64,000 nt of DNA. It comes from Candidatus Yanofskybacteria bacterium CG10_big_fil_rev_8_21_14_0_10_36_16 (GTDB lineage Bacteria; Patescibacteriota; Minisyncoccia; 2-02-FULL-40-12; IGHO2-01-FULL-4-A). Of this stretch, positions 2,414 to 64,000 are shown one piece after another. Position 1 is the first letter of the stretch, and each line of letters begins with the position of its first letter. The translations under genes were made by a program, and so were the position numbers. The stretch spans positions 3,256 to 67,255 of the forward strand of contig PCXQ01000001.1 in NCBI GenBank assembly GCA_002794035.1, given 5' to 3'. Below the pieces are notes generated by a model. The model searched no databases. It had not been told where the DNA came from and worked only from the letters and a program-made list of their open reading frames with translations.

Positions 2414-3259
2414 TTAAATTATTATGTAAAAAATTAAGTAACCTATTATACTTAAAGCAGCAATTGGTGGCAGTGCTGCCATTGGCCGTTTTTTATTTTG
2501 GTTCGTGAATATTAGATGTGTTAAGAAAAGCCCCGCAAGTGAAAATATTAATACAATCACTGATCCTGCAAGTGATGTTTTGGCTACAGATGATGTGAGT
2601 ATCAAGGGCATTACTATATCCCCTGAACCTAATATCATAAAATTATCTCCTGGAGTAACGTTGTTTAATCTTTCTGTGACAAGATTTAATTTTGATGGAA
2701 TTACAAAACCAAATATTGCTTTTGATTCAATCATTGCTTTTGCCATGCTAATCATGTGTTTTGTTTTGTAAACAGCTATTATGTCATAAATTGAAAGAAC
2801 AGCTAGTAAAATAACGGCGAACAAAGGCGTCACAGTAAGGCCAAATAAGGCTCCTATTCCTGCAATAGCGATTACCATTACTATATTTTGAATTATAACA
2901 TTATTCCTATATAAAAATAATCCTATTAATACCAAAGAGACAATGAGAGAGATGTAAGGGTTTAGAAATGATCCTAGGGATAGCTGTAAACCGCTAAAGA
3001 CAGCTAGTGTTAAAAATACTTTAAAAAAAATAGTTCCTGCTTTGCCGCCCTTTTTACTAAAAAATATAAAAAGAACTAATATGACTGCCAATATGATTAT
3101 GTCTAAAAGATTAAAGCTTAGCCCTTCAGACATGGCAACTGTTTCTTCTGGGGGTAATGCCAGTAGTTTTAATGTTACGGCTAATCCGAGGATTTGAGTG
3201 GCCAAGAAAGGTATTAATTCTTTTATGTATGAGCCAAGGTTTAGGTTTATATCCTTCAT
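2414..3259 (-). CDS. Presenilin / signal-peptide-peptidase-like intramembrane aspartyl protease (A22-like)
   Basis: 281 aa polytopic membrane protein with YD (SIYDIIAVY), GxGD (LGSGDIVMPL, close to SPP GLGDIVMPG) and a PAL-like AALPP near the C-terminus. Confidence 0.65.
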   Translation of the reverse strand: MKDINLNLGSYIKELIPFLATQILGLAVTLKLLALPPEETVAMSEGLSFNLLDIIILAVILVLFIFFSKKGGKAGTIFFKVFLTLAVFSGLQLSLGSFLNPYISLIVSLVLIGLFLYRNNVIIQNIVMVIAIAGIGALFGLTVTPLFAVILLAVLSIYDIIAVYKTKHMISMAKAMIESKAIFGFVIPSKLNLVTERLNNVTPGDNFMILGSGDIVMPLILTSSVAKTSLAGSVIVLIFSLAGLFLTHLIFTNQNKKRPMAALPPIAALSIIGYLIFYIII

Positions 3260-24026: not shown

Positions 24027-24362
24027 ATGTTCACAATGACTGAAAAAGCTGTGGGGGTAGCTTTAAAAGTAATGGCAGAACATTATGTAAATCAGAAATA
24101 TTTACGGATCGGTGTTGTTGGCGGAGGATGTTCAGGATTTCAGTATAGTATGAAATTTGAAGATAAAAAAATTCCTCTTGATAAGGAATATAAATTTAAA
24201 AGCGGACAAAAGGTATTAAAGGTGTTGATTGATTCAGCAAGCATGGTTTTTTTAGAAAATTGTGAAGTTGATTATGTTGAGACACTTGAAAGTTCAGGTT
24301 TTAAGTTTAATAACATAAACGTTAAATCTACTTGCGGATGCGGAAGCTCATTCAGTATATAA
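24027..24362 (+). CDS. Iron-sulfur cluster insertion protein (IscA/HesB/ErpA family)
   Basis: 111 aa. GGGCSGFQY and C-terminal CGCGSSF motifs. Confidence 0.85.
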   Translation: MFTMTEKAVGVALKVMAEHYVNQKYLRIGVVGGGCSGFQYSMKFEDKKIPLDKEYKFKSGQKVLKVLIDSASMVFLENCEVDYVETLESSGFKFNNINVKSTCGCGSSFSI

Positions 24363-24417
24363 TATGCGCGACGTCCTGACACTGCTGTGGAATGGGCGGA
24401 AGCTCATTCAGTATATA
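24340..24417. repeat. 22-nt perfect direct repeat of the iscA-like 3' end flanking a 34-nt GC-rich insert
   Basis: gcggaagctcattcagtatata at 24340-24361 and 24396-24417. Insert is atatgcgcgacgtcctgacactgctgtggaatgg. Confidence 0.8.
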
Positions 24418-24481
24418 TTTTTTTTTTAATTTAAAACCCCTTGGGTAGTATCCAAGGGGTTTTGTGCTTTTGAGACAATAT

Positions 24482-26283: not shown

Positions 26284-26388
26284 AGAGCATATGTAGCGGG
26301 GTTAGCCATCGGTGATGGTAATTTGTTTAACCCAAATGGTAGAGCGACAAGATTGAGAATAATTTTAGTAATTTTTCGTATTTTTTAA
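26284..26388 (+). pseudogene. Possible remnant of a LAGLIDADG homing endonuclease
   Basis: 34-codon start-less frame RAYVAGLAIGDGNLFNPNGRATRLRI... bounded by stop codons. VAGLAIGDG resembles the LAGLIDADG motif. Confidence 0.3.
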
Positions 26389-26428
26389 CAATAAAACAGC
26401 CCCGCCACGGCGGGGCTGTTTTATTGTT
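26387..26428. terminator. Bidirectional terminator, 19-bp perfect stem
   Basis: aacaataaaacagccccgc-cacg-gcggggctgttttattgtt. Confidence 0.8.
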
Positions 26429-26438
26429 AAAAAAGTTT

Positions 26439-43810: not shown

Positions 43811-43897
43811 GATGGATTTCTCCACCTGTTACCCTTTCGGGTAACAACCACTGCTGGTGCTCCTAAACGACGGGTTTAGTACCCAGCAGTGGTTTTT
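43811..43897. promoter_or_regulatory. Cluster of GC-rich hairpins (candidate structured leader or small RNA)
   Basis: gatgga-tttc-tccacc, gttaccc-tttc-gggtaac (GAAA loops on the minus strand), and a 10-bp stem ccactgctgg/ccagcagtgg enclosing ctaaac-gacgg-gtttag, then TTTTT. Confidence 0.4.
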
Positions 43898-44012
43898 ACG
43901 TCATACCTCAAATGTTGACATTTTGAGGGTTAGGCAATTTTTAGTTGTTAGACCAATATTATCACAAAACCTTGAAAATCTCCATAATTTTCGTTTTACT
44001 TAAATTAATACT

Positions 44013-44768
44013 ATGGCCTTAATTAACGACAAACAATTTAAACAATTTTTAGAACTCCTAATAAATAAGGTTGAATTAAGAAACGATATTCATTTGGGAA
44101 TACAATACCGTGAATTAATCCAAATATTTTTAGATGATAACGCTATCAAAGATTATTTGCGCTATTCTGAAAATAAGAAGTTGTTAAAATTAATAGGCAT
44201 ATCTAAATATAAAGAAAAGGAAGATCCTTACCCTGATGATTATTATATAAACGAGATAACGCCTAACAATGATTTTATAGGCCCGAAAAGATATTATGCC
44301 GTAAAGAGGTATATACGGTATAATTTCTACCCAAAGGACAACTTTATACTTGATGTGTCTGATAAAAAAATTAAAGGTTTTTATAAGCAGTATCAAAAAG
44401 AAGGTCCGGGGCAAGACCCAAAACGGCTAATTTCCAAAAATAAAAGTGCTTATTTTTATAAATCAAAACAAATAGTTTTTGACAGTGAAGAAACTGACTA
44501 CTTCAGAGTATTTGATGTCCTTTACGAAAATAGTGGGCAAGACAACTTTTTGTCATATGAAAATATAGATAAAGAAATGGTCCGAAGGGGCTCGCCAAAA
44601 CTTATAGATGATCAACAAAAAATTAAACGTATTCATAATGCAGTTAAGAACTTATTTTTATATTCTCGTTGCGGAAGTGAAAAGCTAAAAAATACTACGC
44701 CCAATAAAACTGAACTAATAAAAAAGGTTAGAGGGAGAGGGTGTGTTTTCAATAACCCTCTAATTTAA
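44013..44768 (+). CDS. Hypothetical protein, possible C-terminal winged-helix
   Basis: 251 aa. C-terminal KKVRGRGCVFNNP resembles OmpR/PhoB-type wing endings. Confidence 0.45.
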   Translation: MALINDKQFKQFLELLINKVELRNDIHLGIQYRELIQIFLDDNAIKDYLRYSENKKLLKLIGISKYKEKEDPYPDDYYINEITPNNDFIGPKRYYAVKRYIRYNFYPKDNFILDVSDKKIKGFYKQYQKEGPGQDPKRLISKNKSAYFYKSKQIVFDSEETDYFRVFDVLYENSGQDNFLSYENIDKEMVRRGSPKLIDDQQKIKRIHNAVKNLFLYSRCGSEKLKNTTPNKTELIKKVRGRGCVFNNPLI

Positions 44769-44899
44769 TAAGTTATCTCTCAATTTCTTGTGGACAGCCA
44801 AATATCGGCTGTCTTTTTTTCTTTTTTTACTTGGTTTTAGCGGCCAAAGAGATAAACGGAGAAATTAAAAGATATTAAATATTGATTCAAAATTAAATT

Positions 44900-45526
44900 A
44901 TGCAACCAATAATTAAAACTTTTACTGAACCGGATTGGGATTATCTGTTTTGGACTTGGGATTTAGAAAAACAATGGCAGGAGTCATTGCCAAGGCCAAC
45001 TGAACGAGAGTTGTTAGGTATTTTCCCGGAAGCAAAAAAGATATTGCCGGCATTATTAAGGGACTGGCAACAAAGAAAAAGTGAATTAACCAAAGAACTG
45101 GCTCGGAAATTAAAAATAGTAAAACTTGGCGCGGATAGCGACAGCGAAAGATTTTTCTGGACTGAATGGCTGAAAACAAAATATTTAGGAGAAATTACTG
45201 AAATCGTTAATGACATTAAAAAGTTCAAGAGAATGATGGCTATATCAAACAACCGGGGCCGAGCCTTACGAAGCGAAGAGTCATTGCAAAAGGCTTTAGC
45301 TGTGCCAATAGCATCGGCTATCCGAATTAAACTAAGAAAATTGGGTAATAAACTTGTTGGGCTGTGTCCCCTACATAACGAGAGTAACCCATCATTTTAT
45401 ATCTATACCGATACTAATTCCTTTTATTGCTACGGATGTGGCAAGGGTGGAAATGTAATCAACTTGGTTAGATTTCTACACGATTACACATTCCCAGAAG
45501 CAATAAAGTATTTAACTAATTTATAA
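44900..45526 (+). CDS. CHC2 zinc-finger protein (DnaG-primase-type finger)
   Basis: 208 aa. CPLHNESNPSFYIYTDTNSFYCYGCGKGGNVINLVRFL. Confidence 0.65.
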   Translation: MQPIIKTFTEPDWDYLFWTWDLEKQWQESLPRPTERELLGIFPEAKKILPALLRDWQQRKSELTKELARKLKIVKLGADSDSERFFWTEWLKTKYLGEITEIVNDIKKFKRMMAISNNRGRALRSEESLQKALAVPIASAIRIKLRKLGNKLVGLCPLHNESNPSFYIYTDTNSFYCYGCGKGGNVINLVRFLHDYTFPEAIKYLTNL

Positions 45527-45609
45527 CTTTTGTTTCTTGTTCGGGCTCTTGGCAAAGGCCATAGTAAGCTCCGGCCAGGAGCTCAAACAAGAAACGCGGA
45601 GCTTACTTT

Positions 45610-47154
45610 ATGTCAAACAACCAAAACAATGAAAAACAAAATAAGGAAGGGCGGAAACCACAAGCAACCAAAATCGTAGAATTGGTCAGTGAAAGCAACA
45701 TAACCCTATTCCATAACGAGTTAAAACAGCCCTATGCCTATATTGAAATAAATAACCATAGCGAAATATGGCCCTGTGAAAGCAGGCAATTTAAGGACTG
45801 GCTGGGACACATATTTTGGAATAACGAAGGAAAATCTGCCTATCCTAATGCGATAAACGGTGCGCTATCAACATTAAGAGCCAAGGCGCTTTACGAAGGA
45901 CAGAAGTATAAACTAAACAACCGAGTAGCAATCAAAGACGGTGCAATTTGGTATGACCTTTCTAACAATAACTGGGAAGCGGTCCGTATAAGCAAAAATG
46001 GATGGCGAATCATAGGCAACCCTCCTATCATATTTCAGCGCTTTTCTCATCAGCAAGAACAATTAACCCCGGTACCAGAAGGAAATATAAAGGATGTCTT
46101 ATCGCTAATCAATGTAAAAAAAGAACACCAACTGCTTTTATTGGTTTACTTAGTATCCTGTTTTATTCCGGACTTTCCCCATCCGATATTGGTGGTTCAC
46201 GGGCCTCAAGGCTCATCAAAATCAATGCTATCCAAAGTTCTTAAAAGCTTAGTTGATCCATCTGTATTAGAAACTTGCGACTTCCCTGCAAGTAAAGCGG
46301 AACTGGCTCAAATACTATCCCACCATCACTATGTTGTCTTTGATAATCTCTCGTACCTATCAGATTCAAATTCCGACATTCTATGCCGTGCTGTTACCGG
46401 AGGAGGATTTTCAAAACGGGAACTCTACACGAACGACGAAGACGTAATACACCTATTTAAGCGTTGCATAAACCTCAACGGCATAAATCCGGTGGCAACA
46501 AAACCAGACCTGCTAGAACGAAGCATATTACTGGAATTAGAAAGGATACCCAATGAAAAAAGGAAAAAAGAGACAGATATTTTGCAGCAATTTGAAACCA
46601 AGAGACCAGAAATATTAGGGGCAATCCTAAACACAGTTGCCAAAGCAATGGAGATTAAAGAATCAATAAAAGTAACTGGATTGCCGCGGATGGCGGATTT
46701 TACAGAGTGGGGTTGCGCTATCGCTGAAGCAATAGGACATCCAAAAGAAGAGTTTTTATCTTCTTATTTTGAAAACATAAAGTCGCAAAATGACCAGGTT
46801 ATTTATGATAGCCCTGTTTGCAGTACTCTTTTGAGCTTAATGAAGGAGCGAGAGCAATGGAATGGAACAGCAACGCAACTTTTATCTGAGTTAATTGAAG
46901 AGGCGGAAAGGTTAAATATCAACACAAAAGAAAAAGGCTGGCCCAAATCAGCAGCGTCATTAAGCGGTAAATTAAATAACTATAAAACCAATCTTGAAGA
47001 AGCCGGTATAAAAATAAATCGTTTTGATGAAAACAGGCAAAGACAATTATCTATCAGCAATGATTCTGCTATTGAGAGCCAGGCCGGCAACGGATTAGCC
47101 GAAGAAGACGATAGAGACGCTGCAACGCTCTCAACGCTCTTTCCCGAGCATTAA
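45610..47154 (+). CDS. P-loop NTPase, putative element replication helicase (phage/plasmid primase-associated type)
   Basis: 514 aa. VVHGPQGSSKSMLSKVL Walker A and VVFDNLS Walker B-like. Follows the CHC2 gene. Confidence 0.55.
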   Translation: MSNNQNNEKQNKEGRKPQATKIVELVSESNITLFHNELKQPYAYIEINNHSEIWPCESRQFKDWLGHIFWNNEGKSAYPNAINGALSTLRAKALYEGQKYKLNNRVAIKDGAIWYDLSNNNWEAVRISKNGWRIIGNPPIIFQRFSHQQEQLTPVPEGNIKDVLSLINVKKEHQLLLLVYLVSCFIPDFPHPILVVHGPQGSSKSMLSKVLKSLVDPSVLETCDFPASKAELAQILSHHHYVVFDNLSYLSDSNSDILCRAVTGGGFSKRELYTNDEDVIHLFKRCINLNGINPVATKPDLLERSILLELERIPNEKRKKETDILQQFETKRPEILGAILNTVAKAMEIKESIKVTGLPRMADFTEWGCAIAEAIGHPKEEFLSSYFENIKSQNDQVIYDSPVCSTLLSLMKEREQWNGTATQLLSELIEEAERLNINTKEKGWPKSAASLSGKLNNYKTNLEEAGIKINRFDENRQRQLSISNDSAIESQAGNGLAEEDDRDAATLSTLFPEH

Positions 47155-47186
47155 TAAAACAAGGGGTACTACCCATAACTTAAGTT

Positions 47187-47558
47187 ATGCAGTGTAAATA
47201 CATAAAAAATAATAAAAAACAGTGCGGAGCAAACGCAATGCTCAAAAACAGTTATTGCTTTTATCATAATCCGGATGTCAAAAAAGCAGATAAAAAAGAG
47301 GCTCAATCAAGAGGTGGTAAGGGCAATAAAAGTAGAGTTAGTGAAACTCTTCCGCCAATAACTTTCAAGAAGTCCCGAAACGTCGTCGGATTGCTTGAGG
47401 AAACTATTAATTTGGTTAGGGCAGGAAAAATGGAAATACGAGTTGCTAACTGCATAGGATACTTGTCGGGCCACATCATCAAGGCAATTGAGGTTTCAGA
47501 GCTTACGCAACGCCTACAGGAAGTTGAGAAAAAAATAGAAATAAAATGGCAGGAATAA
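47187..47558 (+). CDS. Hypothetical protein (mobile-element small ORF)
   Basis: 123 aa, basic N-terminus with Cys pairs. Overlaps the next ORF by 13 nt. Confidence 0.5.
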   Translation: MQCKYIKNNKKQCGANAMLKNSYCFYHNPDVKKADKKEAQSRGGKGNKSRVSETLPPITFKKSRNVVGLLEETINLVRAGKMEIRVANCIGYLSGHIIKAIEVSELTQRLQEVEKKIEIKWQE

Positions 47559-47836
47559 CTTTATCTACAATAAAAAGATTAGAGAAAAAAGCCGAAGAAT
47601 TAAGGGCGGCAAATCCAATAGTGGACCGGGTCATAACTGTTCCTTGGCCTTTAGAGATTTATAGCGAAGAGGGAGAAAGATTTATCCAAGAGGAAATTGA
47701 GCGGCGAAATCAAATTAGGAAAGAATCCGGTATTTATTCCGAAGGTCCTTTCTACGTGATTATGCCGGGTAGAATGCCTCAATGGGTGGCCGAAGAAGAA
47801 TGGAGGAAACAAGAAGAGGCAGAGAAACTTAAATAA
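47546..47836 (+). CDS. Hypothetical protein (mobile-element small ORF)
   Basis: 96 aa, charged. Translationally coupled to the upstream ORF. Confidence 0.5.
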   Translation: MAGITLSTIKRLEKKAEELRAANPIVDRVITVPWPLEIYSEEGERFIQEEIERRNQIRKESGIYSEGPFYVIMPGRMPQWVAEEEWRKQEEAEKLK

Positions 47837-47866
47837 TTTCCAATTTTAAGTTATAATGAGTAAACT

Positions 47867-47959
47867 ACACAAAAACCCAAATAGTAGTCAAGACCTTGAA
47901 CATAACGAGGGGCAACGAGGGTTTTTGTGTAGTAACAAAACTTCTTGTCGTTGCCCCTC
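47867..47959. promoter_or_regulatory. Two interlocked perfect 12-bp inverted repeats upstream of the recombinase gene
   Basis: A: acacaaaaaccc (47867-47878) pairs with gggtttttgtgt (47919-47930). B: gaggggcaacga (47907-47918) pairs with tcgttgcccctc (47948-47959). Confidence 0.6.
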
Positions 47960-48058
47960 TTTGTGCTATAAGGCGTCCTCTGTTTTAGATCCCAAGTCAT
48001 TAGAACAAGCATATTTTAGAATTTTTGACTGGGTTTTAGAAAACAAGGACAGTAAATT

Positions 48059-49702
48059 ATGGAAAAAACAAAAAGATTAGCTGCTCTATATGGTAGAGTA
48101 AGCACATCAAACCAAGAGGACCAGAAAACAATTGAGAACCAAGTTGATGCTCTTAATGAGTTAGCGAACAAAAATGATTTTACCATTGTTCAAGAATATA
48201 AAGATGATGGTTGGTCCGGAGATATTTTAGCCAGACCGGCCCTTGATCAGCTAAGGCAAGATGCAAAAAGTAAAATATGGGATACTTTGTTAATTTACGA
48301 TCCGGATAGGTTGGCCCGAAGATACTCATACCAGGAGTTGATTATGGACGAGTTAAAAGAGGCCGGGGTTGAAGTGATATTTATTACTGTATCTGCACCA
48401 AAAAATCCTGAAGATAAGATTTTGCATGGAGTTCGGGGGTTATTTGCAGAATATGAGAGGGTACGGATTACAGAACGTTTTCGTTTAGGAAAGCTCCGCA
48501 AGGTAAAAAACGGCCATGTATTAACAACGGAAGCCCCTTATGGCTATAACTACATAAGAGGAGACAGAGAAAGGCAAATACACGGTTATTATAAAATTAA
48601 CCCCGAGGAAGCAGAGGTTGTAAAAAAGATTTTTCAGTGGATTGGGGATGAAAAACTAAATATCAGAGCTGTTGTAAGAAAATTAAAAGAAGTAGGAATT
48701 AAACCAAGAAAAGCCAAAAGAGGTGTTTGGGCTACGAGCACAATATCAACAATGCTAAAAAACGGGGCTTATATTGGAGAGGCACATTGGGGTAGTTCGT
48801 ATGCAGTAGTACCCGAAAATCCAATCAAAAAAGAGAAGTATAAAAAAATGAAAAAAAGTAGCCGGAGAATAAAACCGAAAGAAGATTGGATAGCATCTAA
48901 AATACCTGTACCTGCCATAATAACCAAGGAGCTGTTTGCAAAGGTACAAAAACAACTAAAAACAAATTCCTCTCTATGTCCAAGAAATAAAAAATATACA
49001 TATCTACTAGGCGGCAAAATACATTGTGTATGCGGTAAAACCAGAAGTGGAGTAGGCCCACAGCGCGGTAAGCATCTATACTATCGCTGTAATGACAGGA
49101 TTTATAGCTTTCCTATACCTCCTACCTGTAAAGAACAAGCCATCAATGCAAGGATAGCTGATGAATTAGTTTGGAATAAAATAGCAAATCTTATGAGTTC
49201 ACCGGAATTGTTAAAAAACCAAGCAGAAAAATGGTCTGATTCTCGCAAGGTGGGGGCAAGATCTCATATTGGCGATATAGAAACAACAGAAAAGGAAATA
49301 TTAAAGTTAAAAGCACAGGAGGATCGCTATAATAAAGCATATGGTGCCGGGGTGTTTGATATAAACCAATTAAAAGAGTATGTTGCTCCGGTAAGAGAAC
49401 GAATAGAATTGTTAAAATCCCAAATAGTCAAAATCAAACAGGAAGAAAACCAGTCGCAAGACAATGCCCTCCCCTCGCTAGATGAAATCCGGTCATTTAC
49501 GAAAGTAACAAGAAATGCTTTATTTAACTTGAATTTTGAAATGAAAAGAGCCACAATTTTAAATGTTATAGATAAAATTATCGGTACACAAAAACAATTG
49601 AAGGTGTATGGTCAAGTGCCGATAACACAAAATTATGTCACATACAAAACTAGCTATCGGTATAGTCGGGTTGCCCAATGTTGGAAAATCAACATTATTT
49701 AA
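48059..49702 (+). CDS. Large serine recombinase (integrase)
   Basis: 547 aa. N-terminal resolvase domain (AALYGRVSTSNQ), recombinase domain, Cys-rich zinc ribbon (CVCG...YYRC), coiled coil. The last 68 nt overlap ychF. Confidence 0.9.
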   Translation: MEKTKRLAALYGRVSTSNQEDQKTIENQVDALNELANKNDFTIVQEYKDDGWSGDILARPALDQLRQDAKSKIWDTLLIYDPDRLARRYSYQELIMDELKEAGVEVIFITVSAPKNPEDKILHGVRGLFAEYERVRITERFRLGKLRKVKNGHVLTTEAPYGYNYIRGDRERQIHGYYKINPEEAEVVKKIFQWIGDEKLNIRAVVRKLKEVGIKPRKAKRGVWATSTISTMLKNGAYIGEAHWGSSYAVVPENPIKKEKYKKMKKSSRRIKPKEDWIASKIPVPAIITKELFAKVQKQLKTNSSLCPRNKKYTYLLGGKIHCVCGKTRSGVGPQRGKHLYYRCNDRIYSFPIPPTCKEQAINARIADELVWNKIANLMSSPELLKNQAEKWSDSRKVGARSHIGDIETTEKEILKLKAQEDRYNKAYGAGVFDINQLKEYVAPVRERIELLKSQIVKIKQEENQSQDNALPSLDEIRSFTKVTRNALFNLNFEMKRATILNVIDKIIGTQKQLKVYGQVPITQNYVTYKTSYRYSRVAQCWKINII

Positions 49703-50783
49703 TGCCCTGACTAAAAAACAAGTAGATATTTCTAATTATGCTTTTACAACGATCGACCCAAATGTCGGGGTTGTTGGGGTACCTGATGAAAGATTAGATA
49801 AATTGGCCAAGATGTCTAATTCCGAGAAAATTACCCCTACGGCCATTGAATTTATTGATATCGCAGGTCTTATTAAGGGCGCAGCAGAAGGAGAAGGGTT
49901 GGGTAATAAGTTTTTAGCTAATATTCGTGAAGTAGATGCCATTGCTCACGTAGTAAGGGTTTTTCCCGCCGGAGGCGGGTCCGCTCATGGCGGAGAAATA
50001 CAGCATGTGCACAAAAATATTGATCCGGTAAATGATATTGAAATAATCAATCTGGAATTAATAATGGCTGATTTGCAGACTATTGAAAGAAGATTAAGGG
50101 AGACAAAAGGCAATGACCCTGCCAAGACTTTTGAAAAAGAGGTGTTAAACAAACTTAAAGAAAATTTAGAAAAAGAAATTCTTGCAATAAACATTTTATT
50201 TACTGAAAAAGAACAAGAAATTGTTCGTGGGTTACATCTTTTAACCAACAAAAAAGTTATATATGCCTTTAATGTGGCAGAACAACAGTTGAAAGACAAT
50301 TGGCAGCCTAACAAAGAATTGCTTGATGTTATAAAAAACAATGAATTTGTTGTTGTCTCAAATACGTTTGAACAATTGCTATCTGAATCAGACCCTGAAG
50401 AAAAAAAGGTTTATCTTGAAGAACTAGGTTTAAAATATAGCGGTTTAGATCAGCTTATAAAAAAAGGATACAAGGCTCTTGGTTTAATTACATTTTTGAC
50501 AACTGGTCCTAAAGAAACACGTGCTTGGACAGCTCATGAGGGTGATTCTATCCCCCGTGCGTCATCTGCTATCCATACTGATTTTGAAGAAAAATTTATT
50601 AAAGCCGATGTGATAAATTGGCAAACACTTTTAGATGTAGCGGTCCATTCGGCGGATTCGGGTTCCTCATCACAAGCAGGCTCAGGCCAAGCTTGGTCTA
50701 AAGCAAAAGAGCTTGGCAAGATGAGAACAGTTGGTAAAGATTACATAATTCAAGAAGGTGATGTAGTCGAGATTAAAATTTGA
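49635..50783 (+). CDS. ychF: Ribosome-binding ATPase YchF
   Basis: 382 aa. GIVGLPNVGKSTLFNALT, DIAGLIKGA, C-terminal TGS-like domain. Two GC-rich in-frame insertions. Confidence 0.95.
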   Translation: MSHTKLAIGIVGLPNVGKSTLFNALTKKQVDISNYAFTTIDPNVGVVGVPDERLDKLAKMSNSEKITPTAIEFIDIAGLIKGAAEGEGLGNKFLANIREVDAIAHVVRVFPAGGGSAHGGEIQHVHKNIDPVNDIEIINLELIMADLQTIERRLRETKGNDPAKTFEKEVLNKLKENLEKEILAINILFTEKEQEIVRGLHLLTNKKVIYAFNVAEQQLKDNWQPNKELLDVIKNNEFVVVSNTFEQLLSESDPEEKKVYLEELGLKYSGLDQLIKKGYKALGLITFLTTGPKETRAWTAHEGDSIPRASSAIHTDFEEKFIKADVINWQTLLDVAVHSADSGSSSQAGSGQAWSKAKELGKMRTVGKDYIIQEGDVVEIKI

Positions 50784-50841
50784 TCTTGACTACATCACTG
50801 TAAGAAGGCCGAACATTTTCTTGGTTTTTTGTAGAAAATGT

Positions 50842-50897
50842 GAAGGTGTCGAAATAATTCAATTATTTCGACAGATGTTGTTGAAATTAAAATATAG
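50842..50897 (+). pseudogene. Displaced remnant of a second ychF 3' end, split by a 26-nt palindromic insert
   Basis: Removing tcgaaataattcaattatttcgacag leaves gaaggtgatgttgttgaaattaaaatatag (EGDVVEIKI*). This differs from the functional end (50754-50783) only at synonymous/stop positions. Confidence 0.6.
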
Positions 50898-50914
50898 AAT
50901 AAACAGTAGTTTTT

Positions 50915-50945
50915 AAAAACCCCGCCAAGGCGGGGTTTTTGATTT
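50915..50945. terminator. Bidirectional terminator
   Basis: aaaaaccccgcc-aa-ggcggggttttt. Confidence 0.8.
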
Positions 50946-50970
50946 TATTTAAGATTTGAACTCTTTATAA

Positions 50971-51513
50971 TTATAATTCATTACAGTAATTTTTTGTATT
51001 GCAGGAACCGGTTAAGTCCTGGAATTGCTTACATTTATCACCGTCTTTAGAAAACAGTTGGCAAAAACCTAAATAGTTTCCTTGATTATCAAAATGATAT
51101 ACTCCACCTTCAGATATGGGGCTTTCTACAACTTTCCAAATTGGGCTGCCATCTACTTCAACACAAAAAAATGCACTTTGCGATCCTCCTTGAAACAAAT
51201 GTGTTATGTTGTTTTGGTCCTTGAATTCATGTTCTCCCGATCGAGTGCACAATGTTTTAACAATTAAAGGCATTTTGTCGCCGACAATTTGTTGGCTGGT
51301 GCTTGCAGAAGTTTTATCTAGATGCCATCCAAAAGGTGTGTTTAGTGGCCAGATATTTTCGAGAAAAGCAAAAGCAAGCCAAGCAATAACAAAACCAGAA
51401 AGCAACAATAAAAATGATTCTAGTTTTGCACGTTGAACCTGCTCAAAACTATATCCGTCTTGAGGGAGGTTAGCAGAGGAAGAGCTTTCTTTTTGAGGAT
51501 TTTGATTATCCAC
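50971..51513 (-). CDS. Membrane-anchored Cys-rich hypothetical protein
   Basis: 180 aa with one TM helix. Extracytoplasmic domain has 6 Cys. Confidence 0.5.
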   Translation of the reverse strand: MDNQNPQKESSSSANLPQDGYSFEQVQRAKLESFLLLLSGFVIAWLAFAFLENIWPLNTPFGWHLDKTSASTSQQIVGDKMPLIVKTLCTRSGEHEFKDQNNITHLFQGGSQSAFFCVEVDGSPIWKVVESPISEGGVYHFDNQGNYLGFCQLFSKDGDKCKQFQDLTGSCNTKNYCNEL

Positions 51514-51893
51514 TTTATAAATGGCTAAAACACTTTAACAAAAGTGTGCATTAAATTAAAATAACCACTTGTGTTAAAGCGTTAGATTACTAATTAAAGT
51601 GTCAAAGTATCTTTTATACGAAAGGTGAGGCAAATGGCCACAGGTTGTTTATGTATGCGAATGCTACGTATGCGATCGCAAAACTGGTCAACATGAGCAT
51701 AAAAAACTCTGTTTTTATTCTCTTCGTGTTGTTTTGGGATTGGACCATGTAATTATTACTCAATATATTTGCATGATGCAAAATAAATAAAGAGCAGATT
51801 AGGAACTTTTTATTACTACTAATATTATATCACTAATATTTCAAAATATTATAAACAGTTATTAAAAAACCCGCTAAGGCGGGGTTTTTAATT

Positions 51894-52496
51894 TTATATT
51901 TTTAATTCTTGTGCTTTCCTAAATAATTCATTTGCTGCTTCCCAATTTAAATTCTTAAAGAAGTTGTCTATATAAGTTTTTCTATCAGAACCAGTATCCA
52001 TGAAGTATGAGTGTTCGTATACATCGCAGGTTATTATTGGTATTGCCCCCCATATTCCCCCATGGTTGTGGGCGTCACAGTTGAATACTCTAAGCTCGCC
52101 AACATTAGCGTCCCAAGCAAGAATTGTCCAACCTCGGGCTGCCATAGCACAGGCAGTAAAGTACTTTTGAAACTGTTCAACTGACCCATATTTAGCAGAA
52201 ATTGCTTCAGCTAGCTCCCCCGTTGACTTGCCATCGCCTCCCAAAATATCAAAATATTTTTCATGAAGGTAAACTCCGTTATTTGCAAAACTCTCGCCAT
52301 TTTTTAGAGAGCGCAGTTCGCTATAAGTTTGATTTCCTTCAGGGTTATCACTTTTGGCAATATCTGTCAGACGTTCTTTTATAGAATTGCTTTTATCAAC
52401 ATAGCCTTTGTATAGTTTGCCGTGGTGAGTTTCTATTGTTTTTGAGGAGATACCTTCTAGCTCTTTATCAAAAGGCAGTGGTTTGTGATTGTACAT
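51894..52496 (-). CDS. Fe/Mn superoxide dismutase
   Basis: 200 aa. HHGKLYKGY and DVYEHSYF motifs. Confidence 0.9.
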   Translation of the reverse strand: MYNHKPLPFDKELEGISSKTIETHHGKLYKGYVDKSNSIKERLTDIAKSDNPEGNQTYSELRSLKNGESFANNGVYLHEKYFDILGGDGKSTGELAEAISAKYGSVEQFQKYFTACAMAARGWTILAWDANVGELRVFNCDAHNHGGIWGAIPIITCDVYEHSYFMDTGSDRKTYIDNFFKNLNWEAANELFRKAQELKI

Positions 52497-52565
52497 GCTA
52501 ATTTGTCCAAGGGTATATCGATTGGGTAACTGTCTGTTCCCGTTCGTTTTATTGCGCTCGGACAG

Positions 52566-52805
52566 TTAGTTGGTTATGCCGAGGGCTTTATTTACTCTTT
52601 CTTTATCAAATCCTACTATAACTTTGTCATCTATAACTATTACGGGTACGGCCATTGAACCGCTTTTTTCTACCATTTCTTGCCTTTTTTGTGCATCTGA
52701 AACAACATCATATGCTTCATATGCAATATTTTTTTCATTGAAATATTCTTTTGCCATTTTGCAAAAATGACATGTAGGGGTGGTGTAAATTTGAACCTTA
52801 GCCAT
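52566..52805 (-). CDS. Glutaredoxin-like protein (NrdH/YruB type)
   Basis: 79 aa. TPTCHFCKMAKEYF active site and VPVIVIDDKVIVGF. Confidence 0.8.
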   Translation of the reverse strand: MAKVQIYTTPTCHFCKMAKEYFNEKNIAYEAYDVVSDAQKRQEMVEKSGSMAVPVIVIDDKVIVGFDKERVNKALGITN

Positions 52806-52979
52806 AATAAAATATTAGCCAACGAATTTTGTGTATATACTACAAGCTTAGTATAAACTTGCAATTCGTGGACATTAATTAAGTTTATTAATTATATCAC
52901 AGCTATCCTATTGTTGCCAAAAAGCAGTAAATGGGCAATAATACATCAATGTTCCTTAACACATATAGGTGGTATACAA

Positions 52980-53891
52980 ATGAAGACAAAGCTTGGTTTA
53001 TTGATTATATTAATTTGTTTTTTTAAAAATACTGTTTGGGCTATGACTGAAAGCGAAAGAGATAATAAAATAGATGAATTTGTGGTTCATTTTGGTAACA
53101 GTGAAGCTGAACTTGCCCTTGAGATAGCTGAAGATCTTTCCGCATCTTTTCCTGAAGATCCTTATTTTAATATTTTAAAATCAAGGGCTATAGGCCAACT
53201 GATTAAAAATAAGATTTTAGAGGGATACAAACTTAAGAACATAAGAAATGGTCCATATTTCCAAGAATTAAGTACAAGATTTTATGCGGAAATAGATAGT
53301 GGATTAAAAAAGTTAGAAGGAGACAATAGCGTAAAAGGCAAATATCTGAGAGGGGTTTTGTTGGGATCCAAAGGAACTTTTGTTCAAATATTTATTGCTG
53401 AATTTAATATATTATCTCCTATTAAATCGCGTAATAATTATCAGGCAGCAGATAAGCTTGGCGCTAATGGCTTGGAGTTAATAATGGAAGCCCTTGAGGA
53501 AGATCCTTCGCTTTGTCCTGCTAAGTTTGTGATAGCAAAGACAAAATATGAGATGTCCAAACTAGGTTTTGTTGAGAGAACAATAATAAGCAATTCTAAC
53601 TCCTTGACCTTTAAACTTCTAGGAAGAAATTTTGATGTAGGAGAGGCTTGGGATTGGATAAACCAAACTTATTGGTGTGCCTCCCCGTATTATTACCAGA
53701 AAGAAATTAATTGGGATAAAATATTTGTTTATAAAGAAATGACGATGGATTACTGTATTAATGGCAATTTAGACAAAGATGGCCATAAAAGGCTGTTAGA
53801 GATACTAGATGTGCTTTGCAATAAGTTTCCCAAGAATAACCAAATAAGGAAAGAGAAAAATATTGTTGAATTTCATCTTGATAGATTTTAA
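52980..53891 (+). CDS. Secreted hypothetical protein
   Basis: Start moved to MKTKLGLLIILICFFKNTVWA (signal peptide). Confidence 0.5.
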   Translation: MKTKLGLLIILICFFKNTVWAMTESERDNKIDEFVVHFGNSEAELALEIAEDLSASFPEDPYFNILKSRAIGQLIKNKILEGYKLKNIRNGPYFQELSTRFYAEIDSGLKKLEGDNSVKGKYLRGVLLGSKGTFVQIFIAEFNILSPIKSRNNYQAADKLGANGLELIMEALEEDPSLCPAKFVIAKTKYEMSKLGFVERTIISNSNSLTFKLLGRNFDVGEAWDWINQTYWCASPYYYQKEINWDKIFVYKEMTMDYCINGNLDKDGHKRLLEILDVLCNKFPKNNQIRKEKNIVEFHLDRF

Positions 53892-53974
53892 AATGTTAAA
53901 CCCGTCAAGGACACATTGGCGGGTTTTTGTTATAATTATATTTATTTTAGTGGTTTTTTATTAATGTAAAAATT

Positions 53975-54382
53975 ATGGGTTGGATAATTAAAATCGTTGC
54001 TTTTGTTGCCGTGGTTTCTTTAACTAGTGGTTTTGTTATAACTAAAGTTCCTGATCTAAAGCAAAAAGTGGTTGAATATATAAACCCAGCAGAAAAAGAA
54101 AGACGTATATTGGGAGAACTGGACCAGGTGCTTGAAGATTTGGAAGATACAGCAATGCAAGTAAGCGATTTTGACAGCCCTGAAGAGGTTCGGGAAAAAA
54201 TTTCTAAGGCGGCAGAACTTATAAACAAGGCTCAAGATTTAAGATTGCAGGCTCAGGAAGCAAATGATAAGGATCAAGGTCTTGTAAGATCCGGAATGAC
54301 TCGAATTATTGATTCCTTTACTAGCAAGACAATTCCTGAAATTACAGATGAGTTGAAAGCCGAGATATGCAAAGAGCAGTAG
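53975..54382 (+). CDS. Membrane-anchored coiled-coil hypothetical protein
   Basis: 135 aa. N-terminal TM helix, then a charged helical region. Confidence 0.5.
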   Translation: MGWIIKIVAFVAVVSLTSGFVITKVPDLKQKVVEYINPAEKERRILGELDQVLEDLEDTAMQVSDFDSPEEVREKISKAAELINKAQDLRLQAQEANDKDQGLVRSGMTRIIDSFTSKTIPEITDELKAEICKEQ

Positions 54383-54464
54383 TAAGTAGCATGTAGCAAG
54401 TATTATGCAAAAAAATCTAGATTTTAATCTAGATTTTTTATTCTTGCTACTGACTACTGGCTAC

Positions 54465-54763
54465 TAAAACAATAGTGGTGGGATTTTTGAGTCTACTAAA
54501 AATATTATAAGTCCGATTATCGCGCCAACGGCCGATATCAACACAAAAGTCGCGGGCCCCTCCCTCGCTGGCTAGGGATCCACTCCCGCTCCTTGAAACC
54601 TTGCGGTTTCAATACTTCCACTATGGGGAAACACCCAGTTTCCCCAGCCCCCCTTCTGATTTCGGATGATATCAGTTTTTTGTTGATTAAAACAATAGTG
54701 GTGGGATTTTTGAGTCTACTAAAAATATTATAAGTCCGATTATCGCGCCAACGGCCGATATCA
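54465..54763. repeat. 76-bp perfect direct repeat of the mraY 3' end flanking a 147-bp GC-rich insert
   Basis: Copies at 54465-54540 and 54688-54763. The insert (54541-54687) contains hairpins gaaacc-ttgc-ggtttc and ggggaaac-accca-gtttcccc. Confidence 0.85.
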
Positions 54764-55760
54764 TCCAAAATCTCATGGTGATTTGGGTTTCATGCCAGCC
54801 CTTGGCCTCGAAATGGTGGTGTATGGGAGTAGATAGGAAAATCTTTTTGCCTCGTAATTTTTTTGAGGTTATTTGAACTATCACAGATAAAGATTCACCA
54901 ACAAACACTAGGGCTATAATTGGTAAAAGCAAAGCGGTATTGGTTAGCATGGCAATAATACCCAGAACAACCCCCAAAGACATTGACCCCGTGTCGCCCA
55001 TAAAAAATTTGGCAGGATAAATATTGAACCACAAAAATGCTACAAGAGCTCCCATGATGGATGCTATAAACACAACGAGATCCATCCTTTCTTGAACAAA
55101 AGCTATTGCGCCATAAGCGGCAAACATGGTTAAGAAGGTTCCACCAGCAAGTCCATCAAGGCCATCAGTTTCATTTGCTGAAAATGCAGTCGCTACGATA
55201 ATAAATATAAAGAATGGAATGTACCACCACCCTATTGCCATGTCTCCTGCAAAAGGTATGTTTATTGAATTAAAGTCCAATTTAAAGAAGAACCACCATG
55301 CACCTCCTGTAGCAACAAGGAGGTAAAGACCTATTCTGTGGCGCATTTTAAGGCCTCCTCCGTTAGGTCCTATTCGAAATACTCCAAAAAGATCATCTGC
55401 CAACCCAAACATTGCAGCAACAAAAAGAGCGCCTAATGGCAACAGTGTCTGTGCACGAGATAGAAAATTCCAATCAGACCAAGTTCCGTTGTAAAGGCTG
55501 GCAAAAAAAGAAAAACCAAGAGTTACGATTATTACAGTTGCCCAAACTACTACCCCGCCCATAGTGGGTGTTCCTTCTTTTTTTTTGTGCAGTTTATTAA
55601 AAATGGGTGCCGAATCGCTTCCTTTTAATTGCTTGCCAAGATTGTTTTTTTGGATAACTTTATTCCATGCGGGTGTTAATATTATTGCAATAAAAAAAGA
55701 TAGTGTCGCCACCACGAAAACTCTGACAACGTTAAAAACAGTAAATGTTTCGCCTATCAA
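54687..55760 (-). CDS. mraY: Phospho-N-acetylmuramoyl-pentapeptide transferase
   Basis: 357 aa. Typical MraY motifs (NETDGLDGLA, GDTGSMSLG, PIHHHFE). Confidence 0.95.
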   Translation of the reverse strand: MIGETFTVFNVVRVFVVATLSFFIAIILTPAWNKVIQKNNLGKQLKGSDSAPIFNKLHKKKEGTPTMGGVVVWATVIIVTLGFSFFASLYNGTWSDWNFLSRAQTLLPLGALFVAAMFGLADDLFGVFRIGPNGGGLKMRHRIGLYLLVATGGAWWFFFKLDFNSINIPFAGDMAIGWWYIPFFIFIIVATAFSANETDGLDGLAGGTFLTMFAAYGAIAFVQERMDLVVFIASIMGALVAFLWFNIYPAKFFMGDTGSMSLGVVLGIIAMLTNTALLLPIIALVFVGESLSVIVQITSKKLRGKKIFLSTPIHHHFEAKGWHETQITMRFWMISAVGAIIGLIIFLVDSKIPPLLF

Positions 55761-60108: not shown

Positions 60109-60210
60109 GTTGTTGGGGTCTTTAATAGTAAATAGATAAATATAGATTAAATGATTTTGTTGTTTTCGTAAACTTAATAATTAAAAACCCCGCCTAGGCG
60201 GGGTTTTTGT

Positions 60211-60699
60211 TCAATCACAATACTCATATGAAAGATTATTATATTCTTCAGTGGTGTAAAGATAAATACCGTCTTTATGCCACAAAACAAAATTCGATAT
60301 GCCCGAATCAAGAGCCAGCTTACTGCAAATTGTGCAATATGGTTTGCCTGATCTTAATATGTTGCCGTTATTATCAATCCTGACAAAAAAGATGGTAGAG
60401 TTTCTAAGCGCTTTCTGTGAATGGCTGTTTATAGCTTCAAATATTGCTCTTTGTTCGGCATGCATACAGCACGTTTTGTCGGTTACCTTTTTATGCAACT
60501 TTGTTTTATCGCAAGAACATCTGCGTTGCGAATCAATATTCCCCGGAGGAGAATTATATCCTTGTCCTATAACTATGCCGCATTTTACAATTACGCTCCC
60601 GCATTTTGATCGCGAGCACGTTGATTTAGTAGCCACACTAGCGGCAGCTTCAAACCATTTTTTTAATGGCATTTCTTCTTCTTTGCTTAGTTTTTTCAT
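60211..60699 (-). CDS. Deoxycytidylate (dCMP) deaminase family protein
   Basis: 162 aa. CMHAEQRAI (HAE) and PYCTICSKL (PCxxC) zinc motifs. Confidence 0.85.
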   Translation of the reverse strand: MKKLSKEEEMPLKKWFEAAASVATKSTCSRSKCGSVIVKCGIVIGQGYNSPPGNIDSQRRCSCDKTKLHKKVTDKTCCMHAEQRAIFEAINSHSQKALRNSTIFFVRIDNNGNILRSGKPYCTICSKLALDSGISNFVLWHKDGIYLYTTEEYNNLSYEYCD

Positions 60700-60779: not shown

Positions 60780-60836
60780 CCCCACACTCATGCATGAGTG
60801 TGGGGATTAAAAACCCCGCCTAGGCGGGGTTTTTAA
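60780..60836. terminator. Tandem hairpins: a 26-nt perfect palindrome plus a ccccgcc/ggcgggg terminator
   Basis: ccccacactcatgcatgagtgtgggg followed by aaaaaccccgcctaggcggggttttt. Confidence 0.7.
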
Positions 60837-60853
60837 TGATTTTATTTTAAGGA

Positions 60854-63399: not shown

Positions 63400-63590
63400 G
63401 CAAGAATTTCTATTCCTGCGTCATGTGGCACTTTTTATCCATTCGACTCCTCCTCGACAAGCTCGGAGCCGCTCAGGATAAACGTTGTCTCGGTCTAACG
63501 CTCGTGACAACGTTTATATCCCAGTACCAGAACCTGCGGTTCGGTACGGGACTGCACTCGCTAAATGTAGCTATATAAAATTTCAGCTCG
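63400..63590. repeat. Cluster of GC-rich palindromic repeat units downstream of secA
   Basis: ggataaacgttgtc...gacaacgtttatatcc and cccagtaccagaacc-tgc-ggttcggtacggg hairpins. The segment tccattcgactcctcctcgacaagctcggagccgctcagg resembles the in-frame inserts in ychF and cysS. Confidence 0.6.
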
Positions 63591-63598
63591 CTTGTTTT

Positions 63599-64000
63599 TT
63601 ATCCTTTATGATGAGGAGCATTTATCATTCCGCACTTTTTCCATTTATATAGTTGTCCTGTATTAGGATTGGTTGCTCCGCATGGACAGGGATCGTTTCG
63701 GCCTACCTTTTGAGTATTTTTGATCGGTTTAGAATTGTTTTGGTTTTGGTTGTTTGGATTTTGAGTTTGGGGTTTTGGATTTTCAAAAATGTTTGCTCTC
63801 CCTTCCTTTGTCTCTTGTCTCTGGGGTTTTTTTAATATTGTTACCTTAAATATTGTATTTGCGACTTGAGTACTTATTGTTTGTTGTAATTCTTTAAACA
63901 ATCTTTGCCCTTCAACTTTATACTCAACCAGAGGATCTTTTTGGCCATAAGCACGAAGGCGAACAGAATCACGAAGCTGTTCCATTGTTTCAATGTGATC
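63599..64000 (-). CDS. secA: Preprotein translocase SecA, C-terminal part (gene runs off the right window edge)
   Basis: DHIETMEQLRDSVRLRAYGQKDPLVEYK matches the SecA helical scaffold. C-terminal KVGRNDPCPCG zinc-finger motif. Frame is open to base 64000. Confidence 0.9.
   Translation of the reverse strand, partial: DHIETMEQLRDSVRLRAYGQKDPLVEYKVEGQRLFKELQQTISTQVANTIFKVTILKKPQRQETKEGRANIFENPKPQTQNPNNQNQNNSKPIKNTQKVGRNDPCPCGATNPNTGQLYKWKKCGMINAPHHKG

Follow-up and report, generated by a model that had tools for sequence, protein, structure and literature searches.

The essential GTPase gene ychF, as it is found in a 64,000-nucleotide stretch of the genome of Candidatus Yanofskybacteria bacterium CG10_big_fil_rev_8_21_14_0_10_36_16 (contig PCXQ01000001.1 of assembly GCA_002794035.1, forward-strand positions 3,256 to 67,255; the whole stretch is referred to here as 'the window', and positions are counted from its first letter), is followed at a short distance by a second, untranslated copy of its own last nine codons. 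The source genome has a G+C content of 36% and belongs to the Patescibacteria (candidate phyla radiation). The functional end of the gene (termed 'F', 50754-50783) and the second copy (termed 'P', 50842-50848 plus 50875-50897) encode the same nine residues followed by a stop, and differ only in ways that leave the peptide unchanged. The explanation favoured here, with confidence somewhat better than even, is that ychF owes its present 3' end to the joining of an incoming end (F) in front of the resident one (P), by way of another allele of the gene and a foldback hairpin.

According to this scheme, a short piece of DNA (approximately 50761-50841), bringing its own last codons, a stop codon and a hairpin-forming filler, would have been joined in front of the resident gene end; ychF would now terminate in the incoming F, and the resident P, still attached to its native terminator, would have been displaced 58 nucleotides (nt) downstream and left untranslated. 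The 26-nt palindromic insert that splits P would have been gained later, or at the junction itself. The most likely route for such an exchange would be non-reciprocal recombination with another ychF allele, in which the gene-side junction was homologous and the downstream junction, located at the foldback hairpin, was illegitimate or made by a transposase.

Both copies of the ychF 3' end had been described in an earlier note on this DNA, and its coordinates and sequences for them were confirmed (Table 1). With the 26-nt insert taken out, P does read EGDVVEIKI*, as that note had proposed, and it is identical to F at 24 of 30 bases. The six base differences (GTA/GTT, GTC/GTT, GAG/GAA, ATT/ATA and TGA/TAG) are all synonymous or exchange one stop for another, and they follow an identical 11-nt stretch (GAAGGTGATGT) common to the 5' ends of the two copies. 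The palindrome in the insert, given as 23 nt long in the note, is indeed perfect and reaches 27 nt when the flanking TG..CA is counted; together with the T-rich stretch behind it (GATGTTGTTG), it earns a weak terminator-like score. The ychF stop codon sits within the right arm of a 41-nt near-palindrome (fold of -35.8 kcal/mol, z = -6.7). No match to the Rfam 15 covariance models was obtained in 50700-51000 at the gathering threshold, and the ychF palindrome and filler have no second copy in the window or in any locus compared; any target duplication amounts to 1 nt at most.

The match between F and P is not random, as the earlier note had held, and it also survived the treatment of the indel that the note had named as a possible refutation. 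In a split alignment allowing any one gap of up to 40 nt, 2 of 3003 non-cognate gene-end/downstream pairs reached 24 or more identities in 30; at the protein level, none of 2340 shuffles exceeded four matches in six. Six residues plus the stop were matched downstream of ychF in only 2 of 117 loci, namely the window and locus L005 ('L' numbers denote related loci used for comparison). That the match arose by chance in AT-rich DNA, or through an error of assembly, is thus extremely improbable, even though ychF ranks no higher than about the 99th percentile of the non-cognate pairs when plain local alignment, with no split, is used, and even though the coding end (ATTAAAATTTAA) is of low complexity and partly palindromic. 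Set against these two points are not only the null distributions, but the coincidence of the stop codons of F and P, the reappearance of the pattern in other genomes, and an independent Logan contig (L123, from SRR6240789) that is 100% identical to the window over 47817-54494 (~6.7 kb), which excludes an assembly artefact. At these levels both forms of the objection are rejected, and the observation is confirmed.

The manner in which the two copies differ carries most of the argument for two alleles. When P was allowed to drift neutrally in simulation, its retention of the peptide and stop had p = 1.5e-4 (0.005 if only half of the changes are placed on P), and a local duplicate decaying under neutrality is accordingly rejected as an account of the pair (p <= 0.005). 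A comparable pattern is found in other genomes: the synonymous share of the differences is 6/6 in the window, 5/5 for ychF of L005, 7/7 for RNase J of L026 and 7/8 for RNase J of L095, and the four pairs taken jointly have p < 1e-8 under neutral drift. These results support the earlier proposal of two diverged alleles, and F and P are best read as two alleles of one coding end that were brought together from different genomes. Differences confined to synonymous positions, combined with an intact peptide and stop in P, argue that the copies would have diverged as working gene ends in separate genomes and would have been joined recently. The note had called the event 'clearly old or of foreign origin'; the first half of that phrase is disfavoured, because the peptide that P still encodes would not have survived in an untranslated copy of great age, and a join that was recent and involved a foreign F appears to fit better.

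The direction of the replacement, in which the note had regarded F as the new end and P as the ancestral one, is favoured more weakly. It would follow from the contiguity of P with the native terminator, from the codons that P uses, and from its greater closeness to the relative. The codons of P are those preferred by the genome, whereas F uses GTC (11% of valine codons), GAG (26% of glutamate codons) and TGA (2 of 24 stops, the rarest). In the window, P differs from the ychF end of the nearest relative (L142) at six positions and F at eight, compared with six differences between F and P. The corresponding counts (F-P, F-relative and P-relative, respectively) are 7, 7 and 4 for L026 against L028; 8, 7-8 and 6 for L095 against L139 and L140; and 5, 3 and 3 for L005 against L059. 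The F branch is the longer one in four of five such three-way comparisons, and P is closer than F to the relative in three of the four comparisons from other genomes; the divergence between F and P can be put overall as at least that from relatives, on numbers that are small but consistent in direction. Relatives of the window ychF, all of which come from Parcubacteria-type metagenome-assembled genomes, were sought by exact-protein look-up, by scans of genomes and metagenomes and by protein searches, and the best of them shared 69% amino-acid identity with it (75% for L005 and 87% for L095).

The same layout recurs, both in this genome and in its relatives. A scan of gene ends in the window and 121 related loci (~1000 genes), in which the last five residues plus the stop were sought in the downstream 300 nt, returned exact matches only for MraY and ychF of the window, ychF of L005 and RNase J of L026; RNase J of L095 and an IscA-like gene of the window matched at five of six positions, and the null never reached six of six. 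In the members of this class the new end and its stop come first, followed by a short filler with a foldback hairpin at its far edge; the old end and the native downstream signals come next, and this architecture, hairpin junction included, is present in every one of them. The earlier note had counted ychF as the third case of 3'-end replacement in the window, which is correct: the IscA-like gene is followed by an exact repeat of 22 nt and MraY by one of about 80 nt. In both of these genes the repeat ends at the stop codon and a terminator adjoins the second copy (that of the IscA-like gene, which ends in TAT rather than TAA, is followed by the terminator at 24433-24463). The MraY filler contains three or four hairpins, folds only marginally better than shuffled sequence, and has neither an Rfam match nor a copy elsewhere in the data compared; by eye it loosely recalls the 880-930 region of 16S rRNA (CCGCAAGGTT ... 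GGGGCCCGC). The geometry of the IscA-like case (22-nt repeats, 33-nt insert) resembles the ectopic insertion of a spacer of clustered regularly interspaced short palindromic repeats (CRISPR), as a likeness only.

Among the relatives, the end of RNase J is duplicated from one and the same codon (after ...RRP) in both L026 and L095, which are not sister lineages, and 26 other orthologues are without the duplication. In L142, the closest ychF relative (69-72% amino-acid identity), the last four codons (ATAAAGATATAA) are repeated 138 nt downstream, and L041 and L113 hold what appear to be decayed ychF examples. A wider scan for elements of up to 4 kb between the copies added only L015 and L046, which are tandem paralogues, and weak protein-level matches in L076, L011 and at window position 60211 fall within neighbouring genes in another frame and were put down to chance.

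A hairpin abuts P in each of the diverged pairs. That of the window ychF is a small foldback with 9-nt arms; in L005, L026 and L095 it is a conserved 34-nt structure, composed in order of GCCCCGUAGC, a covarying inner stem of 5-6 bp, a GAA loop, a bulged U and GCUNC(U)GGGG. A covariance model of the latter found one further member in ~0.9 Mb, located downstream of secA in the window (26 bits, E = 0.016). The hairpins of L005, L026 and L095 have no Rfam match, and a search for the motif in viral contigs gave random matches only, in GC-rich phages. The 34-nt junction hairpins lack a target-site duplication, as would be expected if their two flanks came from different molecules. They recall domain V of group II introns, in appearance only. 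Behind the secA hairpin comes a perfect palindrome whose arms measure 12 nt (63478-63517, minus strand), and an in-frame MDKKCHMTQE* (~63411-63443, minus strand) loosely echoes the secA tail KKCGM..., an echo that is not statistically significant.

The 34-nt hairpins also resemble the termini of a family of miniature inverted-repeat transposable elements (MITEs) of the Patescibacteria, which are bounded by YCCCGTTAGAAA...TTTCTAACGGGR, carry 4-bp target duplications and measure 35-133 nt. Twelve copies were found in ~1 Mb of loci, mostly at gene boundaries. One of them, a 133-nt foldback with terminal repeats CCCCGTTAGAAGTCT and the target duplication TATG, lies in L139, which is closely related to L095, and occupies the corresponding RNase J/trpS junction. 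In L005 the coding sequence of ychF contains a copy in frame, which contributes PVRTDGHLEWPTSNG to the protein. The flanks tatgaa|...|tgaa in L042, L096 and L117 (cctgaa in L095) look like one common insertion site; in L117 that site is the start codon of ssb, where the last A of the element and the duplicated TGAA re-create the ATG. The hairpins at the window ychF junction are AT-rich and single-copy, and because of this their membership of the 34-nt/MITE family does not appear to be supported.

A number of observations weigh against a rebuilding by foreign DNA. The 58 nt between F and P hold no open reading frame (ORF), and hence no gene for an integrase, nuclease or transposase, and no such enzyme could be tied to the event. 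The earlier note had raised the possibility that part of ychF has a different origin, and no foreign signal emerged for the whole or any part of the gene from codon usage, GC3, G+C profile or segment-wise similarity to 59 homologues; ychF is compositionally native overall, with no mosaic pattern. The GAAGGTG that precedes the palindrome (7 nt) might represent microhomology and not belong to P. An empty site was not seen among the relatives, and because the nearest ychF shares only 69% amino-acid identity, polarity rests on few synonymous sites. Finally, the copies of MraY (~80 nt) and of the IscA-like gene (22 nt) are identical and their fillers are GC-rich, which looks more like local duplication with a captured filler than like foreign import; and in L142 (3293-3568) two tandem units, repeating at a period of 137-138 nt, each consist of the 12-nt gene end ATAAAGATATAA, a spacer and a 96-nt foldback, which fits duplication (the foldbacks are only ~72% alike, the gene-end copies are identical, and the second has a 1-nt deletion just upstream). 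These last cases would suit an in-situ duplication of ychF's own end, whether by insertion of a foldback or MITE or by a template switch in replication (including transposition of an aberrant, one-ended or sister-copy kind), after which F would have drifted synonymously and P would have been frozen by a non-coding role, as a terminator U-tract here and as a promoter or ribosome-binding region in other loci. Template switching in the course of quasipalindrome mutagenesis is a source of palindromes such as the 41-nt one at F, which is the product expected from a natural quasi-palindrome; a TTTTG microhomology lies at the MraY junction, the palindrome together with P is terminator-like by score, and P of L095 and L041 holds the Shine-Dalgarno sequence or start context of the downstream gene. 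Synonymous-only divergence, however, is very unlikely in a P that is not read as codons. In the window P serves no downstream gene, because the next gene is convergent, and it is split by the 26-nt insert and therefore not tightly constrained; moreover, F and P have diverged no less than the ends of sister species that have no duplication, and a nucleotide-level scan revealed no excess of partly decayed duplicates. An origin in situ is considered unlikely.

Two other explanations have less in their favour. The pair could be the relic of a classical integrative element, with F as attL (the end borne by the element) and P as attR, from which most of the island has been deleted to leave a cis-mobilizable, att-flanked (CIME-like) remnant. 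The architecture is that of gene-restoring attL/attR pairs (PMC7192596), the identical 11 nt followed by divergence are reminiscent of a crossover core and arm, and a large serine recombinase adjoins ychF. That recombinase lies at the opposite end of the gene, however, and the spacing of the copies (58 nt here, 8-138 nt in every case) would demand repeated, near-total deletions that each time spared both ends; the diverged cases of L005, L026 and L095 have no common core, and the reading is accordingly quite improbable. Still more doubtful is the idea that both ends remain in use, the stretch from F to P being removed by DNA excision, by splicing of a mini-intron from the RNA or by ribosomal bypass, so that selection keeps both of them coding. 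This would explain why P is conserved in a codon-respecting manner in four independent pairs, and why a conserved, structured hairpin stands directly before it. On the other hand, the spacings (56, 60, 83, 110, 114 and 223 nt) have neither a common frame nor a common length class, P of the window is broken by the 26-nt insert unless P begins after it, P of L142 has suffered its 1-nt deletion, and neither conserved splice-like boundaries nor a matching Rfam family were found. With these rivals weighed, the rebuilding of ychF by an incoming end is retained as the preferred account, and it may be brought together with the other cases in a unified view: identical repeats would result where one junction-forming process acts, as it mostly would, upon sister or conspecific copies, and synonymous-only differences where it occasionally acts upon DNA taken up from a diverged relative.

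The 5' end of ychF has a separate history. The earlier note had remarked that it abuts a serine recombinase, and an overlap of 68 nt was indeed found. The enzyme belongs to an integrative element that represents a classical, separate event, and a link to the rebuilding of the 3' end is rejected: L066 and L067 (2425-4056) have a recombinase of 64% identity with a like overlap and, in front of it, the same DnaG-zinc-finger gene, and no displaced 3' copy follows their ychF; in L005 and L142 the situation is reversed, with a displaced copy and no recombinase. The N-terminus MSH(T/S)xLxIGIVG is confined to the ychF genes of the window (as MSHTKLAIGIVG) and of L066/L067. In L142 (2213-2260), where the element is missing, the protein begins MLSIGIVG and the DNA is identical to that of the window over ATCGGTATAGTCGGGTTGCC, from ATCGGTAT onward; because a different N-terminus is thus followed by identical DNA, the element appears to target the P-loop-coding start of ychF and to supply it with new first codons. 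No displaced 5' fragment of ychF, no second ychF in the window and no left end of the element was found. A LOOT RNA (Rfam RF03000, 86 bits, full length) is located at 43811-43936 on the minus strand, just to the left of the presumed left border of the element.

Elsewhere around the gene, the neighbouring ORFs encode a superoxide dismutase and a protein that matched no family. The core of the terminator behind P (AAAAACCCCGCC..GGCGGGGTTTTT) is found in four intergenic palindromes of the window (26381-26434, 50915-50940, 60183-60208 and 60806-60837), and perfect palindromes with arms of at least 10 nt are nearly all intergenic within the window.

Table 1. Coordinates of the ychF region, of the other rebuilt gene ends and of related hairpins and elements (window positions unless a locus is named)
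Feature	Position	Strand	Details
ychF coding sequence	49635-50783	+	382 amino acids; MMR_HSR1 and YchF-GTPase_C domains (ORF list, Pfam); 100% identical to P0001
F, last nine codons and TGA (EGDVVEIKI*)	50754-50783	+	GAAGGTGATGTAGTCGAGATTAAAATTTGA; GAA GGT GAT GTA GTC GAG ATT AAA ATT TGA
Near-palindrome, 41 nt	50758-50798	+	Left arm is F, right arm an inverted F copy (18/20 complementary)
Filler separating F from P, 58 nt	50784-50841	+	Unique in all data compared
Small foldback, 9-nt perfect arms	50813-50841	+	ACATTTTCT / AGAAAATGT; 3' edge exactly abuts the start of P
P, first piece	50842-50848	+	GAAGGTG; codons E and G, first base of D
Insert inside P, 26 nt	50849-50874	+	TCGAAATAATTCAATTATTTCGACAG; with flanking TG..CA a perfect 27-nt palindrome (50847-50873)
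P, second piece	50875-50897	+	ATGTTGTTGAAATTAAAATATAG; rest of D, VVEIKI, stop; untranslated, covered by no ORF
Native bidirectional intrinsic terminator	50913-50942	+	Strong match; directly after P; common to the ychF side and the convergent gene 50971-51513
IscA-like gene	24027-24362	+	Last 22 nt, 24340-24361; exact repeat, 24396-24417; filler between them, 33 nt, 59% G+C
MraY	54687-55760	-	Last ~80 nt (54688-54770) repeated at 54465-54548 after a 138-nt filler of 54% G+C
34-nt hairpin near secA	63519-63552	-	GTCCCGTACCGAACCGCAGGTTCTGGTACTGGGAT; secA (stop at 63599) lies 47 nt upstream; shares two bulged T residues with the L095 copy
Large serine recombinase ORF	48059-49702		Domains: Resolvase, Recombinase, zinc ribbon; 68 nt at its 3' end shared with the start of ychF
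Integrative element	43950-49702		Left border presumed; includes a DnaG-zinc-finger (primase-like) ORF, 44900-45526
MITE copy, L005	1772-1818
MITE copies, L042	5892-5995, 7391-7493
MITE copies, L078	402-522, 3145-3247
MITE copy, L085	6655-6734
MITE copy, L095	5595-5657
MITE copy, L096	2132-2194
MITE copy, L117	985-1043
MITE copy, L139	1080-1212
MITE copy, L052	4670-4770
MITE copy, L013	1686-1720

Several known systems offer partial parallels to the rebuilt end of ychF. Integrative elements can restore the gene that they enter by means of a fragment carried in attP (PMC7192596). As in those elements, ychF is intact with a new terminal segment, and the old segment persists as a partly diverged direct repeat on the far side; unlike them, the ychF repeats enclose no integrase or cargo but only 58 nt of hairpin-forming filler, and the diverged cases of other genomes show a foldback hairpin in place of integrase arm sites and of an identical crossover core. 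The WHO elements of yeasts (Torulaspora/Lachancea) replace the 3' end of FBA1 and push the old end downstream (PMC7282813). There too most of the changes in the new end are silent at the protein level (here six of six), but WHO units encode their own endonuclease and act in diploid meiosis, whereas the present case concerns a bacterium, no nuclease gene, a unit of ~60-220 nt and the replacement of only 7-27 codons. Lacking a recombinase or nuclease gene, of such small size and with a hairpin at the junction, the ychF case was assigned to neither group.

The likeness to MITEs, to foldbacks and to the duplications that accompany aberrant transposition lies in a short foldback placed exactly between two direct copies of host sequence. 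Aberrant transposition of maize Ac/Ds generates tandem direct duplications; these differ from the present pairs, of which four join diverged alleles and not identical sister copies. Measured by the definition of a MITE, terminal inverted repeats are present in the window (the 27-nt palindrome and the foldback with 9-nt arms), but the junction hairpins have no target-site duplication and those of the window are single-copy; the YCCCGTTAGAAA family has both of these attributes. Homology-facilitated illegitimate recombination, which occurs in natural transformation (of Acinetobacter and pneumococcus), produces one homologous and one illegitimate junction, and similarly sets foreign DNA beside an anchor gene, where it can leave recipient sequence duplicated next to the import. 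It is not known to recur at the same codon in unrelated lineages or to end at a specific conserved hairpin, in contrast to the shared RNase J codon of L026 and L095. A diversity-generating retroelement was considered and dismissed: the differences (A/T, C/T, G/A, T/A and the stop swap) are not confined to template adenines under either assignment of the copies, and no reverse transcriptase was present among the 20 neighbouring proteins scanned.

It can be speculated, at a level of confidence that is low, that the Patescibacteria hold a class of protein-less foldback cassettes (~35-140 nt) which settle in the last codons of essential genes and either carry in or generate a recoded copy of those codons. 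Such cassettes would be the bacterial, nuclease-free equivalent of homing cassettes, and the transposase of the YCCCGTTAGAAA MITEs might mobilise them in trans; alternatively, they might be removed at the level of DNA or RNA, with both ends under selection. The ychF of the window would then be an old member of the class, and the secA hairpin its signature within this genome. The interest of the finding would rise if such hairpin-linked patches proved to be a mobile class.

If the rebuilding of ychF is as proposed, the ends of highly conserved housekeeping genes in the streamlined Patescibacteria would be repeatedly remade by tiny, protein-less, hairpin-linked insertions, and in the window both ends of ychF would have been rebuilt, the 5' end by a serine-recombinase element and the 3' end by an agent unrelated to it, a hairpin-linked patch. 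The displaced copies would provide a datable marker of these events. Gene callers and phylogeneticists would be cautioned that terminal codons may have a history other than that of the gene body. For the organisms themselves, the process would offer a cheap route for the exchange of alleles, and for the planting of terminators and promoters in genomes where the intergenic space amounts to a few bases.

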